From IMG/VR virus record IMGVR_UViG_3300017763_003471, positions 118,592-138,591 of that record: 20,000 nt of DNA. The stretch is one strand, 5' to 3'. Numbering within the stretch: position 1 is the stretch's first letter; each line of letters begins with the position of its first letter. Under the pieces are notes generated by a model. It was not told where the DNA came from. It saw nothing but the letters and a program-made list of their open reading frames with translations, and did no database searches. The position numbers were made by a program, and so were the translations under genes. This DNA is from an uncultured virus (IMG/VR IMGVR_UViG_3300017763_003471) (lineage: Duplodnaviria; Heunggongvirae; Uroviricota; Caudoviricetes). This document shows positions 11,009 to 18,055 of the stretch, piece after piece.

Positions 11009-12247
11009 TTATTCAAAATAATTCTGCATTCCACCGTCTCTGACTGTATCAACTGTCAAACAATGTAACCCTGCATCCCAAAAATTTCTGTGTCTAAAAC
11101 GACAATAGACAGGTTCTATTCCATGTTGCTTCAATTTGTCATGCACTTCCTTTTGATAATTTAAAGATAAAATAACATCAGGTGAAACACTTAGCATGTT
11201 AACTTCAAATACTGTTTCTTCTACATAACCAACCCATTTACTTAACCATGCATCTACAAATCTTGCAAATGCTTTATTATCTTTTTGTTTAGGATGCCAC
11301 CATCTACCTTGTGATAAGTGTTTTTCGTTTTGCCAGTCACCCCAATCTGATTGCATTTGATTAGGATGTTCTATTCTTAATATATCCCAGCCTGGAAATG
11401 TTTCTTTAAAATGCTCTGGTTTAAGCCATGGAGCACATACTACTAGACCAGGTTTAGGGGTGCAGAATGTAGCATCATTATGTCCTCCAATAGCGACATG
11501 AGGAGTTTTATAATTTGGATATAATTCACTTATTACTTCTGGTAAATTTATAACATCTTTTTTATCTATAATTAATGTATCACCAATACGTGTTATAGTT
11601 GGTGCCCAAAACATTTGAGTAGATGCTTTATATCTTGCTACTTGATTACCTCTTACACTTTCCATTTTTTTACGTTCATGTGCATTCCAACTAAGCCAAT
11701 CTACTGGAAGTCCATTGTCTTCCATGTATGATTTAGAAGGAATAAATCTACCAAATGTATACTCATCGCCTTTTAATCTCATATCTAAAACTTCTGGATT
11801 TATTAAAGATTGTCCATTTACCTGTAGACCTTTAGATTGATGAAATCCATTAGTGTATAAAACTTTATCTCCCATCGAAATAAAGAAATCTCTAGGAGAT
11901 AAACAAGGTTTTGGAATACCATGACCTTGAAACTTGTCTGTATTTGATTTTTCTACCCAATCCATTACTGATGTATGTTTAGATATTTGAGGTAACCCGT
12001 CTGATAAGTCTGCTAACATAGTTGCATTAGCAGGTGTTCTAACAACATCAACTCCCATGTCTTCCATAGTCTTTTGTATGTTATCTAAATCTTCGTGTGT
12101 TTCGTAAAGAAGTTGTTGTATCAAGTCTCTTGTTCTAGTATCTGGCAAGTCTTCAAAGAACTCAGGTTCAAACACATTGCCAAGAATAACTTGTTTCAAT
12201 GGGTCCCAACCGTTATAAGAATTAATCTTGTTTATTCGGTAATTCAT
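11009..12247 (-). CDS. Amidinotransferase (glycine/inosamine amidinotransferase, pentein family)
   Basis: SYNGWDPLKQVILG, PRD, GHNDATF, NMLSV, AGLHCLTVDTVRDG. Confidence 0.85.
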   Translation of the reverse strand: MNYRINKINSYNGWDPLKQVILGNVFEPEFFEDLPDTRTRDLIQQLLYETHEDLDNIQKTMEDMGVDVVRTPANATMLADLSDGLPQISKHTSVMDWVEKSNTDKFQGHGIPKPCLSPRDFFISMGDKVLYTNGFHQSKGLQVNGQSLINPEVLDMRLKGDEYTFGRFIPSKSYMEDNGLPVDWLSWNAHERKKMESVRGNQVARYKASTQMFWAPTITRIGDTLIIDKKDVINLPEVISELYPNYKTPHVAIGGHNDATFCTPKPGLVVCAPWLKPEHFKETFPGWDILRIEHPNQMQSDWGDWQNEKHLSQGRWWHPKQKDNKAFARFVDAWLSKWVGYVEETVFEVNMLSVSPDVILSLNYQKEVHDKLKQHGIEPVYCRFRHRNFWDAGLHCLTVDTVRDGGMQNYFE

Positions 12248-12569
12248 CTGGGAAATCTCTATATAAAAAATGTTGTATTGTTGTTACGTCTACCATATGA
12301 TTAAATCCAACATGTTCTCCCTCAATGTTTTCTTCATTACGTAACACTCCTGTCATTGCATCGTCTAGTTGTTGCATGTTTTTGAATTCCATATCGATAC
12401 GAAATTCAGGTAAGTCCATAGAACGAAATCCTAATTTCATTCTTGTAAGTCTATAACTTTCCATATGTCCTAACTCTACCATTTTATCTAAAAACAATTT
12501 CATCTTTTTAGCAAAATGATAAGAATTTACTTCCTCACTATGGTCTGCGTAGATTGTATATATGTCCAT
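12222..12569 (-). CDS. DUF6614-like protein
   Basis: YRLTRMKLGF...EFRIDMEF..MQQLDDA...H pattern recalled from the family. Confidence 0.55.
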   Translation of the reverse strand: MDIYTIYADHSEEVNSYHFAKKMKLFLDKMVELGHMESYRLTRMKLGFRSMDLPEFRIDMEFKNMQQLDDAMTGVLRNEENIEGEHVGFNHMVDVTTIQHFLYRDFPDELPNKQD

Positions 12570-12994
12570 TAAATGGGTCCTAGTATCTCAAATCCTTTTA
12601 TCTGTTTCTTATAAGTATGTGCTTCGCCTAAATACAAATATTTGTAACCTTTACTTTTATATATTGCACATTCATTTCTTAAACTTTTTATACCTAAATG
12701 TAATTTAGGAGTTTTGTAATCCCAAGCAAACTGCAATGCTTCAACACTTTCATGGTCTTGTATCATAATACAACTGAATGCAACAAGTTTATCTTCTTCA
12801 TCATAATATCCAATAATATCATTTTGCAAATAATCATTATCGAACATTGGCATTACACTTTTAAAACCTTTATGTCTACAATATGTTTTATAGATTTCAT
12901 TAAGTTCAGGTATGTTTGGTTCTTTCAAAAATCTACAATTTGGTATAACAGAATAATTAGTTTGTGCTAGGTCTATTCGGGCATAAGTTGTCAT
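12569..12994 (-). CDS. Minimal aminoacyl-tRNA--protein transferase (ATE_C/Bpt-like, GNAT fold)
   Basis: YYDEEDKLVAFS, WDYKTPKLHLGIKSLRNE, GYKYLYLG...YK. Confidence 0.65.
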   Translation of the reverse strand: MTTYARIDLAQTNYSVIPNCRFLKEPNIPELNEIYKTYCRHKGFKSVMPMFDNDYLQNDIIGYYDEEDKLVAFSCIMIQDHESVEALQFAWDYKTPKLHLGIKSLRNECAIYKSKGYKYLYLGEAHTYKKQIKGFEILGPI

Positions 12995-14598: not shown

Positions 14599-17424
14599 TA
14601 ACAAAGTGTCTCCGCCGATAGCAGAAGTGTTGATGCTTATGTGTTTCTCCCACACATAAGGAGTTAGATAATTAGGACCACCTGCTTTAGGTCCAGTACC
14701 ACTTAAACCGTATCCACCGAATGGTTGAGTCTCTACAACTGCACCTATTTGGTCTCTGTTTATATAAATGTTACCTATCTTCATTTTCTTAGCTATGTTA
14801 TCATAGAACTTAGTTACACGTGAATGTATACTTAATGTTAGTCCAAATTTACTTTCATTTATAAAAGATACTATTTCATCTAATTCATCTTTTTCATAAA
14901 CATAAACATGCAACAATGGGCCAAATATTTCTTCATCAAAATACTTTTTGTAGTCTGTTACAAGATAAGCACTTGGTGGGATAATTAATTTTGGTAACTC
15001 TTTTCCATTACGAGATTTCGTTGCAATTAATGTTTCGTTTTCTTCAAGTACTGCAATTCTTTCTTGTATCTTTGCATATGCCACACCATCAATAACACGT
15101 GATACGTCTGTATTTAAATCATCTGCATTACCAAGTGATATTACTTTAATTTTATGTTTTAACATATTAATAATTTCTTCACTATTTTCTTTTTGAAGAA
15201 ATAAAAATCTAGTTGCTGAACATCTTTGTCCTGCACTATCGAATGCACCATATGATACATCTTCGACTAACTGTTCAGGTAAACAAGTAGAATCTGCAAT
15301 CATAGAATTTATACCACCTGTTTCTGCAATGAAAGGTATAATAGGCCCATCACGTTCAGCAATAAGCCTCTGTATAGTCTTAGCACTCTTATGAGAGCCT
15401 GTGAACGTTATACCTGATATACGTTCATCTTTGATTGCTTTAGAAGCCTCTTCAATATCAGGGTCACACATACGTAGTGCATCTATTGGTACACCAACGT
15501 GATGCATTGCACCCAATACAACTTTTGCAATTTCTAGGGTCTGTGGTGCGGGTTTTGCCAATACGGTATTTCCTGTAATCAATGCGGCTACGATTGGTCC
15601 TAAGAAAATTGCATAAGGAAAATTCCAAGGTGCTATTACCATCCAAGTTCCTCTAGGATTAAAAACTGTAGAATTATATTCACCGGTATAACCTATTTTG
15701 ATATTTTCTCCATACATTAATTCAGCTTGTTCTACGTAGTAACGAATAAAATCAACTGACTCTCTAATTTCTGCAACTGCATTTGGATATGTTTTAAAAG
15801 AATATTTTACTAATCTGTTTGCCGCAGGAATCATTTCTTCTTCTAAACTATCTGCACATGCTAGTAGAATTTTCTTTCTATGTTCAAATGTTGTATTTGC
15901 CCATTGATTTTGATAGTTGTATAAATGTTCTATACTATCTTCCACTGAAAGTAATTCTTCATCATGGTGAGGGTGAACCGCAGAGTCTAACATATAATCA
16001 ACCATAGCTGGATCAGTTAAATCATATCCTTTACTATTCTTTCTTCCAGGATATAAATCTTTCCATGACTTAAGTGATTTCTTTTTCTTTTTAACTTCTT
16101 TAAAAGGATCTACAACTTCATTTGTATGAACAAAACTAGTGTTAGCACCATTCTCTAATAAACGTCTTATTAGATATGCTAATAAATCTTTATACTCACC
16201 GACTGGTGCATATACTCTGACTTTCGTATCTCCTACTATCTGACTGAATAAACTATCACCCATTCCGTAAAGTTTCTGAAATTCATATTCTTGCTTACTA
16301 CATTTACCAACACATTGTATTGCTGAAACTGTATATGGATTATGTGTAGCATATGCAGTTTTCAATCTTTCACTATGCATCAGTTTTTTAGTACATGCTA
16401 GATAAGATATGTCTGTATTCTCTTTTCTTGTAAATACTGGATAATCTAGTCCTTCTTGTTGTGAATACTTTATCTCAGTATCCCAATATGCGCCTTTAAC
16501 AAGCCGTATAACGAGTTTGGCGCTACTATGCTCTGCTATTGTCTCTAACGTATCAATAACCCAAAAAGCACGTTTCTGATAAGCCTGTAGAGCAAATCCT
16601 ATAGTAAAATCTTTAAATTTGTATGTTTTAAGCATTTCTTCAAGTATCATAATGCTTATATCGAGCCTACGTGCCTCTTCTGCATCAATAAACATTGTAG
16701 TGTTGTTTTCTTCGCATACTCTAGCTATAGCGGCTAATTTAGGTACTAGTGTGTGTAAAACGTCTTTGTGGTTCTTTAATTCGTATCTAGGGTGTATTGC
16801 ACTAAGTTTTATAGATATGGATTCTTTTGACTTAATAGCCGCATCTAAATATCTTTCATAGTATAAATTTGCATCTTCCCAATTTGTTGCGGCCTCTCCT
16901 AGCATATCAAATGAATATGCATAACCTTTTTTCTTATTTTTTATTGCAGTTTCTATGTTGCTACCCATAACAAATAAAGTACCCATTTGTTTTACCATAG
17001 TCTTTGTCATTTCTCTTACTGCTGGCCAGCCTATTCTTCCTACTATACCTTCATATGCTGAAAGCATTTGTGCCTGAGTTAATGCAATACTGGCCGCTTT
17101 AGAATAAAAACTATTATTAGATAATTTATACCATTCTGCATTTGATAATTTATCTTTGATAAGTTTGTCTTGTGTTTCTTTGTCTGGTGTACGTAAAAGA
17201 GATTCACAAAGAGTCATAAGTGCCATGCCCTCAGGAGCACTCATATCATATGACTTCATTATATGAGTCAAATAATGTTCATCGGTAAGTTTAGATTGAA
17301 TGGTTTCTGCCTCAGCCATTACTGACCGAAGGACTTCACTAGATGCCTTAGATGCAATTAGAAGTTTTGGAACAATTTCTAATTCATCGGATCTATAATA
17401 ATCATTATGTGGATAACACTTCAT
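14578..17424 (-). CDS. putA: Bifunctional proline dehydrogenase / P5C (glutamate semialdehyde) dehydrogenase
   Basis: PRODH motifs YSFDMLGEAA, SIKLSA, IDAEE, RLVKGAYWD, ATHN, YLIRRLLENGAN; ALDH motifs PWNFP, FTGS, ETGG, GQRCSA, EEIFGP, QPFGG..LSGTGPKAGG. Confidence 0.96.
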   Translation of the reverse strand: MKCYPHNDYYRSDELEIVPKLLIASKASSEVLRSVMAEAETIQSKLTDEHYLTHIMKSYDMSAPEGMALMTLCESLLRTPDKETQDKLIKDKLSNAEWYKLSNNSFYSKAASIALTQAQMLSAYEGIVGRIGWPAVREMTKTMVKQMGTLFVMGSNIETAIKNKKKGYAYSFDMLGEAATNWEDANLYYERYLDAAIKSKESISIKLSAIHPRYELKNHKDVLHTLVPKLAAIARVCEENNTTMFIDAEEARRLDISIMILEEMLKTYKFKDFTIGFALQAYQKRAFWVIDTLETIAEHSSAKLVIRLVKGAYWDTEIKYSQQEGLDYPVFTRKENTDISYLACTKKLMHSERLKTAYATHNPYTVSAIQCVGKCSKQEYEFQKLYGMGDSLFSQIVGDTKVRVYAPVGEYKDLLAYLIRRLLENGANTSFVHTNEVVDPFKEVKKKKKSLKSWKDLYPGRKNSKGYDLTDPAMVDYMLDSAVHPHHDEELLSVEDSIEHLYNYQNQWANTTFEHRKKILLACADSLEEEMIPAANRLVKYSFKTYPNAVAEIRESVDFIRYYVEQAELMYGENIKIGYTGEYNSTVFNPRGTWMVIAPWNFPYAIFLGPIVAALITGNTVLAKPAPQTLEIAKVVLGAMHHVGVPIDALRMCDPDIEEASKAIKDERISGITFTGSHKSAKTIQRLIAERDGPIIPFIAETGGINSMIADSTCLPEQLVEDVSYGAFDSAGQRCSATRFLFLQKENSEEIINMLKHKIKVISLGNADDLNTDVSRVIDGVAYAKIQERIAVLEENETLIATKSRNGKELPKLIIPPSAYLVTDYKKYFDEEIFGPLLHVYVYEKDELDEIVSFINESKFGLTLSIHSRVTKFYDNIAKKMKIGNIYINRDQIGAVVETQPFGGYGLSGTGPKAGGPNYLTPYVWEKHISINTSAIGGDTLLLTSEPR

Positions 17425-17449
17425 ACTTTCCCTGCTTTACTTATGTATG

Positions 17450-17457
17450 TATTTATC
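17450..17457 (-). promoter_or_regulatory. T4-like late promoter candidate upstream of putA (GATAAATA)
   Basis: TAAATA core about 25 nt before the ATG. Confidence 0.5.
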
Positions 17458-17644
17458 TATCGCACTGATTAATGTTTCAGTGGGTTGCACTCAAAGTGCA
17501 ACCCTATATTCTGAATAGAAGACCTCTCTGTTACTGTTGCAATGCAAATATAACGGTTCGAACCTTTTGCACCTCATAAAGAGAAGGGACTTCGCAATAA
17601 TTCATTTTAATCGCTATTATGCGATATCAGTTGGGTTGCGATAG
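17457..17644 (-). ncRNA. Candidate multi-stem structured RNA (~190 nt), family unknown
   Basis: Terminal 8-bp complementarity CTATCGCA/TGCGATAG, several internal helices, no ORF, AATAAATA upstream at 17686-17693. Confidence 0.55.
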
Positions 17645-17723
17645 TAAACTGTAAAACAGAAAACTACTTGTATTTCCCATGCAAATATTTATTATTTTCG
17701 TAGAAATCACTTTGAAAACAAGC

Positions 17724-17758
17724 AAAAAAAGACCCGATAGTATTGCTACTACCGGGTC
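17724..17758 (-). terminator. Rho-independent terminator
   Basis: GACCCGGTAGTA-GCAA-TACTATCGGGTC-TTTTTTT (12-bp stem with one G-U, GNRA loop, U7). Confidence 0.9.
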
Positions 17759-17826
17759 AGTTGGCGAAGAGGACTAGAGAACGGTGCAGGGAGCACCGTA
17801 CTAAAGTGCAGGCAAAAAGCCTGCAT
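17724..17826 (-). ncRNA. Candidate small RNA (~100 nt): two hairpins, CU-rich linker, intrinsic terminator
   Basis: TGCAGGC-TTTTT-GCCTGCA; ACGGTGC-TCCCT-GCACCGT; terminator; GTAAATA immediately upstream. Confidence 0.7.
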
Positions 17827-17875
17827 AAGTATTTACTACAATTTGTGGATTAATTTACTTACAATATATTGTATA

Positions 17876-18055
17876 TTATAGTTTTTGAGGCTCAAGCATA
17901 TCAGGTTCTAAATCCATTGAACTATGAACATTCCAGACTTCTCTTTCATGTATCAACGCATAATGTTTCGCTTCTGATTCTGTCATTAATTTCATTTCGT
18001 TATTGCCATCAGGATGGTCAATAAGATATAAAAAATGTGCTTTCTTTTTACTCAT
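17876..18055 (-). CDS. Hypothetical protein (59 aa, MSKKKAHFLYLIDHPDG...)
   Basis: Translated by hand; start overlaps the upstream gene end. Confidence 0.65.
   Translation of the reverse strand: MSKKKAHFLYLIDHPDGNNEMKLMTESEAKHYALIHEREVWNVHSSMDLEPDMLEPQKL

Follow-up and report, generated by a model that had tools for sequence, protein, structure and literature searches.

A candidate small RNA family with an invariant CU-rich core in uncultured marine jumbo phages

Small RNAs (sRNAs) such as enterobacterial SdsR/RyeB and alphaproteobacterial AbcR and cuckoo RNAs combine one or more 5′ hairpins with an unpaired conserved stretch and a U-tailed terminator. In AbcR and the cuckoo RNAs, CU-rich anti-Shine-Dalgarno motifs lie in conserved hairpin loops. 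Here we describe a predicted sRNA gene with a similar layout in an uncultured virus (IMG/VR record IMGVR_UViG_3300017763_003471, positions 118,592 to 138,591). The stretch analysed, 20,000 nucleotides (nt) in length and hereafter called the window, is the final 20 kb of that 138.6-kb record, and the sRNA is encoded on its minus strand, upstream of a phage putA gene. As in Hfq-type trans-encoded sRNAs, its stems covary and its presumed seed is fixed. Strong comparative support identifies it as a new predicted family of phage sRNA. We put the probability that it acts in trans by base pairing at about 0.5; the scans that we ran did not identify a target.

The original prediction placed this RNA alongside AbcR and the cuckoo RNAs, and in this respect it did not hold. 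With Rfam 15 gathering thresholds, cmscan of the whole window returned three transfer RNAs (tRNAs) only, none of them in the sRNA region, which also has no transfer-messenger RNA. At E ≤ 10, positions 17400-17900 gave eight weak matches, none of them to AbcR, cuckoo or riboswitch models, and the best of them fell far below their gathering scores (mir-2822, 19.9 bits against 84; SraC_RyeA, 19.2 against 37; SdsR_RyeB, 18.3 against 38). Neither AbcR (alpha-r15) nor cuckoo/CcsR was therefore matched at either threshold, and since no Rfam 15 family matches, the RNA is not AbcR, cuckoo or SdsR. Whereas AbcR and the cuckoo RNAs keep their CU-rich motifs in hairpin loops, here the loop of hairpin 2 varies and the linker alone is conserved. 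Furthermore, unlike all three bacterial families, this RNA is phage-encoded, and the exact 20-mer with which most homologues were retrieved occurs in none of 185,579 prokaryote genomes (one genome per species).

Other parallels come from phages. Motifs such as manA, wcaG and PhotoRC are orphan structured RNAs of marine phages that lie beside auxiliary metabolic genes, and the sRNA has likewise been found only in marine DNA, viral or metagenomic, where it neighbours such a gene (putA). However, those motifs are held to be cis elements of the adjacent gene, while the sRNA has its own terminator, is followed by a further promoter-like motif and persists without putA; it matches none of the Rfam models of this type. 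Phage T4 encodes small stable RNAs beside its tRNA genes. The sRNA resembles them as a small stable RNA of a T4-superfamily phage, but it lies ~16.7 kb from the tRNA genes of the window, has another layout and bears no known sequence relation to them. To our knowledge, regulatory RNAs are few in virulent or jumbo phages, and we know of none from uncultured marine ones.

Published examples of phage and prophage sRNAs include one from a vibriophage (10.1101/2024.10.31.621285), svsR from a lambdoid prophage (PMC12803456) and one from a prophage of enterohaemorrhagic Escherichia coli (PMC13502914), and the subject has been reviewed (PMC12197685). Judging from the accessible parts of these sources, they share with the present case a small phage-carried RNA presumed to act on host or phage transcripts; they belong to temperate phages of enterobacteria and vibrios, whereas the carriers here are uncultured, myovirus-like marine phages of ~340 kb. 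A non-exhaustive search of the marine jumbo-phage literature, in the parts accessible, found no mention of a small RNA or of putA for such phages. The sRNA occurs in many marine metagenome assemblies and its comparative support is unusually clean. With this support, and given its survival in an island where almost everything else turns over, it is well suited to become a new Rfam family. Study of the sRNA could open a way to RNA-based host takeover in ocean phages, and its invariant seed could help to find the host or the target.

Fold, covariation and conservation of the RNA

Both perfect 7-bp hairpins, the CU-rich linker, the promoter-like motif and the terminator were found where the original prediction had placed them, on the minus strand, which also carries all of the surrounding genes (Table 1). 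Its description of a GC-rich unit in an AT-rich genome was likewise accurate (GC content 0.50 for the RNA gene, 0.35 for the genome). The minimum free energy (MFE) of the minus-strand RNA is -49.2 kcal/mol compared to -23.3 +/- 3.0 for shuffled sequences (z = -8.7), and none of 200 shuffles folded as stably. The opposite strand folds more weakly (-43.1). All three hairpins are retained in the centroid structure, with hairpin 1 probably at the extreme 5′ end of the RNA. A scan of 1.5 kb gave 2 terminator-like sites (0.4 expected).

Table 1. Predicted features of the sRNA locus and adjoining genes (window coordinates)
Feature	Position	Strand	Basis or remark
Upstream 59-amino-acid gene (p59)	17876-18055	minus	stop codon 40 nt before TAAATA, no terminator between
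Promoter-like motif, G+TAAATA	17836-17830	minus	four bases upstream of hairpin 1
Whole predicted RNA, ~98-103 nt	17724-17826	minus	covariance model R1, 120.3 bits, E 3e-23
Hairpin 1, UGCAGGC/UUUUU/GCCUGCA, 7 bp, loop UUUUU	17825-17807	minus	sequence and MFE fold
Inter-hairpin segment, CUUUAGU	17806-17800	minus	pairs with first linker bases in MFE structure, extending hairpin 2
Hairpin 2, ACGGUGC/UCCCU/GCACCGU, 7 bp, loop UCCCU	17799-17781	minus	sequence and MFE fold
CU-rich linker UCUCUAGUCCUCUUCGCCAACU, proposed seed	17780-17759	minus	folds of variants
Invariant core UAGUCCUCUUCGC within linker	17776-17764	minus	comparison of relatives
Intrinsic terminator, 12-bp stem, GCAA loop, U7 tail	17758-17731; tail 17730-17724	minus	terminator scan and fold
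Remnant of decayed ~180-amino-acid gene, now putA leader, outside sRNA	17425-17720	minus	intact reading frame in L140, L149, G004
Phage putA, bifunctional proline dehydrogenase / pyrroline-5-carboxylate (P5C) dehydrogenase, 948 amino acids	14578-17424	minus	Pfam Pro_dh 7e-80, Aldedh 4e-81

Homologues were collected by two routes. Pattern searches of viral contigs with a piece of the linker gave 26 matches, and with its other half 109, each including 5 true homologues; the linker patterns also led to 39 marine metagenome loci, of which 38 were true homologues. Such searches recover only copies with an intact linker. Independently of the linker, viral contigs were searched with an alignment of phage PutA N-termini, yielding 10 putA loci. 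Three of these were already known, four carried the RNA and were new (L189, L190, L191 and L193), two distant ones (PutA 41% and 37% identical) lacked the RNA, and one was not assessable as its contig begins inside putA. Loci are identified here by L numbers and five phage records as G000-G004; of these, G001 is complete (342,607 bp with direct terminal repeats) and near-identical to the window.

A covariance model, R1, built from a structure-blind MAFFT alignment of 27 sequences (A4), matched 47 of 48 related marine viral and metagenome loci at 51-120 bits, representing 28 distinct sequences. The sole locus without a match, L174, proved to be a chance pattern match. Each of the five phage records has exactly one copy (5/5). 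Beyond this group, R1 found nothing in four related cultured jumbo phages (best match E 0.43), and searching 50,697 GenBank phage records with the sRNA sequence gave chance matches only (E ≥ 1, at most 21% of the query). Measured against the window, the RNA is 70-99% identical, its flanks 53-91% and putA nucleotides 67-89%, so that, in the sequences compared, the RNA is conserved better than its surroundings and than putA.

The stems are preserved by compensatory change. When each of the 23 distinct variants was folded alone, all gave the same three hairpins with the core unpaired. In A4, 92.4% of cells are paired, compared to 30-47% when partners are slid by 1-3 columns. The original prediction had proposed covariation among related phage sequences as a check, and all three stems do covary, with 15 of 26 pairs changing on both sides. 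The observed values were not reached by any of 500 column shuffles for four of five measures, including paired fraction, double changes and covariation score; the count of further pair types was unexceptional (reached in 264 of 500). In a model-fitted alignment of the 28 distinct sequences (A5), which leans towards structure, 99.4% of cells are paired and changes on both sides occur at 16 of 26 pairs. In hairpin 1, the base (UGCAG/CUGCA) is nearly invariant and each of the two upper pairs shows double changes in 14 of 28 sequences; changes on both sides affect 6 of 7 pairs of hairpin 2 and 7 of 12 pairs of the terminator, whose pairing is kept with compensatory changes in all 28.

A G-U pair at terminator columns 80-95 is present in 25 of 28 sequences and a second one in 12 of 28. 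Read from the other strand, these conserved pairs would become A-C, which identifies the minus strand as that of the RNA. The same observation bears on a reading at the DNA level, in which the locus binds a protein, acts as a signal for replication or packaging or is a hotspot of recombination, and its palindromes are incidental. While its position in a variable island of auxiliary genes and the 12-bp palindrome just upstream would suit such an element, the G-U pairs are maintained on a single strand, only one strand has the T-run behind the stem, and the compensatory changes preserve pairing and not sequence. We consider a DNA-level element highly improbable.

The region has no convincing open reading frame, as had been noted before. 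A 25-codon frame opens at the first base of the RNA, but translation of 21 variants showed it to be broken in relatives by early stops or frame changes (stops at codon 5 in L003, codon 2 in L006 and L162, and codon 9 in L146 and L153), and no peptide is conserved among them. Taken with the fold and its covariation, the comparisons indicate that the locus is a genuine conserved gene for a predicted non-coding RNA of ~100 nt on the minus strand.

The 22 nt of the linker are identical in most lineages and at every locus found with linker patterns, and 22 of 22 nt are shared by phages with differing genomic GC content (0.35 against 0.39-0.40) and with PutA proteins of no more than ~55-65% identity. 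However, since the 20-mer served to retrieve most homologues, its invariance is in part a product of the search. In the four loci reached by way of PutA, the linker is CUAUAGUCCUCUUCGCAAACUU, with three changes in 22 nt and the 13-nt core intact. As these loci keep only the core and AAACU, the unbiased claim is that UAGUCCUCUUCGC and the AAACU after it are invariant. The original prediction treated the whole linker as unpaired, which is true of the core and less so of the start of the linker. Its first six bases (CUCUAG) can form pairs with the CUUUAG that separates the two hairpins, which leaves about UCCUCUUCGCCAACU as reliably unpaired. On A4, pairs 25-57, 26-56, 29-53 and 30-52 of this interaction are kept in 27, 21, 25 and 25 of 27 sequences; we regard it with moderate confidence as a possible pairing that is compatible with most sequences, mostly without variation and with few changes behind it. 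The UCCCU loop of hairpin 2 had also been proposed as a second anti-Shine-Dalgarno seed. This idea was not sustained, as other lineages replace the loop with GCCCU, GUCCU, UCA, UAA, GUUA, UGA, UUA or CGA.

Neighbouring genes, promoter-like motif and expression

TAAATA precedes the RNA at the same spacing in 28 of 28 variants, and RNA bodies cut 3 nt after the motif begin N-U-G-(C/U)-A-G. In G001, the hexamer is found 94 times (24 expected) within 100 nt upstream of predicted genes, affecting 89 of 434, with the consensus GATAAATAC. Enrichment upstream of phage genes is 11.7-fold for AAGGAG, 4.7-fold for TTGACA and 4.6-fold for TAAATA. The GATAAATAC-type motif resembles the T4 late promoter, TATAAATA. 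The original prediction called it late-promoter-like, but its distribution does not show a late class: among 20 genes checked, TAAATA precedes 3 of 10 structural genes at a distance of at most 120 nt, and likewise 3 of 10 replication or metabolic genes. Several lineages share a (C/T)ACAA element located 10-16 nt before TAAATA.

The position of the RNA just past the p59 stop codon, on the same strand (Table 1), is what one would expect if it were chiefly the 3′ end of the upstream operon, that is, a structured 3′ untranslated region (UTR) and terminator that stabilises and ends the 17876-18055 messenger RNA (mRNA), with no function in trans. Expression data also touch on this reading. They consist of Logan contigs of four RNA libraries at depths of 3-8, in which neither transcript ends nor strand are visible and DNA carry-over is possible. 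Contigs from two libraries and two studies (X4, spanning 17762-17915, and X9, spanning 17746-17895; depth 3) run 70-90 nt upstream into the preceding gene and so bridge gene end and sRNA, which is weak evidence as the contigs may contain DNA. Two others (X2 and X11) span the putA leader, ending at 17633 and 17640. As they show neither ends nor strand, the contigs do not demonstrate a discrete transcript of ~100 nt.

Comparison of loci speaks against a mere 3′ UTR. The p59 gene, which has no Pfam or PHROG match, was not detected in G002-G004, all of which carry the sRNA, and in L008 and L154 the gene before the RNA is another one. Furthermore, a mere terminator would not fix 13-22 unpaired nucleotides, nor the spacing of TAAATA in 28 of 28 sequences. 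These observations agree with the original prediction, which had named a 3′ UTR of this gene as the result that would count against an sRNA, and we regard the 3′-UTR reading as improbable. Read-through from the upstream gene into the same terminator is likely all the same, and an RNA that arose as a 3′ UTR could have a promoter of its own as well. The p59 stop is followed by a perfect 12-bp palindrome, ACAATATATTGT (17872-17861), ~25 nt before the TAAATA of the sRNA; it is partly conserved in L003 as ACAATATATAGT.

On the downstream side, putA follows in 36 of the 39 loci whose sequence is long enough to judge, and the four L189-type loci have it too. This association would be explained if the RNA were a cis-acting leader or attenuator, similar to a riboswitch, that controls read-through into putA or the ~180-amino-acid reading frame. 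In L163, L168, L176 and L148, moreover, UUGGCGAA lies next to the ribosome-binding site of putA and is a possible pairing partner of the seed. However, the distance and even the identity of the downstream gene vary: the spacer to putA is 56-62 nt or ~260-300 nt, or the intact ~180-amino-acid frame comes first, and in L008 and L154 the downstream genes are unrelated (L008, L017 and L154 all have other neighbour genes). G003 keeps the RNA in the same broad neighbourhood, with different flanking genes and no putA in the 202 kb examined. A further TAAATA follows the terminator in most lineages, and in the window the putA leader has such motifs at 17691-17686 and 17455-17450. The persistence of the RNA where putA is missing, together with the separate TAAATA of the next gene, argues that it is not a putA leader. 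In addition, no riboswitch model matches, and inspection of the MFE and centroid structures, by eye only, revealed no alternative anti-terminator pairing, the centroid keeping all three hairpins. A cis-acting role is thus very unlikely. More generally, no neighbouring protein gene strictly co-occurs with the RNA; p59 and p110, which have no family matches, are no exception.

Mode of action and search for targets

A fixed unpaired stretch, covarying stems and a U-tailed terminator form the pattern expected of a seed-bearing, trans-acting sRNA. We infer the following course of events. Transcription would start a few bases after TAAATA, directly at hairpin 1, and would end at the intrinsic terminator, where read-through from the upstream gene would probably stop as well. 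The two 5′ hairpins and the terminator hairpin would protect and scaffold the RNA and display an unpaired CU-rich stretch of 14-22 nt with the core UAGUCCUCUUCGC. This stretch may pair in trans with a purine-rich, Shine-Dalgarno-like site resembling GCGAAGAGGACUA in at least one mRNA, most likely of the host, and pairing would block translation or trigger decay of the mRNA. The seed complement GCGAAGAGGACUA resembles a ribosome-binding region. Phage genes use ribosome-binding sites of the AAGGAG type, as their enrichment indicates, so the host ribosome reads Shine-Dalgarno sequences.

This was in essence the role first proposed, a trans-acting translational regulator. The gene itself, its covarying stems and its invariant CU-rich stretch support that proposal; the target did not appear in any scan. 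No 17-mer complement of the seed with up to 3 mismatches was found in G000-G004 beyond its own opposite strand, with the exception of one chance 3-mismatch site in G002. Across 434 translation-initiation regions of G001, the minimum duplex energy was -23.1, compared to -23.6 +/- 1.7 for 40 shuffled seeds. A comparative scan of 111 ortholog groups of G001-G004, based on crude gene calls, start regions only and duplex energies without accessibility, yielded a lowest combined p of 0.0028, short of significance when 111 tests are made. Neither of the two phage genomes searched (G001 and G002) has an Hfq gene (0/2).

These results weigh against base pairing in trans, and several others do so too. 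The identity over 22 nt exceeds the need of a typical 7-12-nt seed, and the apparent length of the invariant stretch owes something to retrieval. The base before TAAATA in the sRNA copies is G, T or C and never the consensus A (position -1), and the only RNA-library contigs across the sRNA continue into the preceding gene. Nor could a host be named from PutA, as the homologues are too distant and scattered: the bacterial PutA proteins retrieved are 35-41% identical over the N-terminal 400 amino acids and come from Alpha-, Beta- and Gammaproteobacteria. Finally, the phage's own putA start region was considered as a target and rejected, as it ranks in the top 0.2-1% only in L163 and L168 and at the 32nd percentile in the window lineage.

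The putA start deserves some further description. In L163, L168, L176 and L148, the terminator ends just 56-62 nt before the start of putA. In these loci, and in L144 and L162, the sequence AUCGUUUUGGCGAACGAG is conserved next to the start. Within it, UUGGCGAA is perfectly complementary over 8 nt to the seed portion UUCGCCAA; the window lineage lacks this sequence. Since the UUGGCGAA/UUCGCCAA match is inherited from the coding sequence of the decayed reading frame, it counts as a single event and may be a coincidence. A pairing of the UCCCU loop with AGGGA at the ribosome-binding site of the window's putA was also discarded, as the AGGGA site is not conserved in L003.

Targets outside the phage were no clearer. 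For two 16S and one 23S ribosomal RNAs of sampled alphaproteobacterial genomes, the fractions of shuffles that did at least as well as the seed were 0.20, 0.10 and 1.00. A universally conserved host RNA as target was rejected as well: the complement of the 13-mer occurs in 17 of 401 sampled alphaproteobacterial genomes, and a reversed-pattern control matched no fewer (approximate count).

Because the long identical stretch is found in phages of both 35% and 39-40% GC, and since every target scan was empty or inconsistent, we also considered that the RNA binds a protein or serves as a decoy. The invariant stretch would then be a recognition site or a mimic of a host RNA, and would sequester its partner (a host or phage RNA chaperone, nuclease or defence factor) instead of pairing with mRNA. 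Such a role would account for identity beyond the need of a seed, and phage RNA decoys are in print, among them a guide-RNA mimic described in the accessible part of a preprint (10.64898/2026.06.03.729762). However, the length of the identity is in part a retrieval artefact, the relatives found through PutA keeping just 13 nt and AAACU. Furthermore, we recognised neither a GGA-type nor a repeat-like motif in the stretch, Rfam models related to tracrRNA or CRISPR gave no match at E ≤ 10, and a strictly co-occurring protein partner is missing among the neighbours. We judge this possibility, the main rival to base pairing, unlikely, though worth keeping in view. Two further readings are doubtful. 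In one, the RNA is a decoy or mimic whose 13-22 invariant nucleotides are recognised by some conserved factor of the host, for example a nuclease of its defence, a regulator that binds RNA or a part of the translation apparatus. In the other, the RNA and the phage PutA together form a module that rewires proline and glutamate metabolism of the host during infection. If true, the decoy version would explain a letter-perfect stretch despite differing GC and neighbours. Base pairing with an mRNA is still the function that we favour for this sRNA.

Phage genome and neighbouring features

The carriers are a clade of uncultured marine jumbo phages of ~340 kb in the T4 superfamily. PHROG scans identified a T4-type DNA polymerase, clamp loader, PhoH, MazG and thymidylate synthase as well as many radical-SAM proteins and tail and virion proteins. 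For the DNA polymerase, the closest matches come from jumbo phages, namely Sinorhizobium phage Phosso (48%), Agrobacterium phage Atu_ph07 (45%) and the Rak2/GAP32/CBB group (~43%). These nearest cultured phages hint, but only hint, at an alphaproteobacterial host.

The phage putA is an unusual auxiliary metabolic gene that is conserved across this phage clade. The best PDB match of its product is 3haz (E 1.3e-192). Of 78 PutA matches in GenBank records labelled as phage, only 2 were full-length, and both are contigs annotated with bacterial putA. Within the decayed gene that now forms the putA leader, conserved blocks can form a long stem, CGAAGUCCCUUCUCU ... AGAGAGGUCUUCUA, with compensatory changes in L144 and L162, and there is an additional hairpin at 17504-17482.

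Elsewhere in the window, tRNA genes for Arg-TCT, Glu-TTC and Leu-TAA lie at 533-1066 on the minus strand. A 141-amino-acid protein (12569-12994, minus) has a weak match (1.5e-6) to ATE_C, the C-terminal domain of arginine-tRNA-protein transferase, and adjoins a DUF6614 protein (8e-23; 12222-12569, minus), an odd pairing for a phage. In G000, the region G000:C1:1-37000 (L179 and L180) encodes at least 8 radical-SAM-domain proteins beside a carbamoyltransferase, with a tryptophan-halogenase-like protein ~10 kb downstream. This cluster looks like a natural-product or modification gene cluster.

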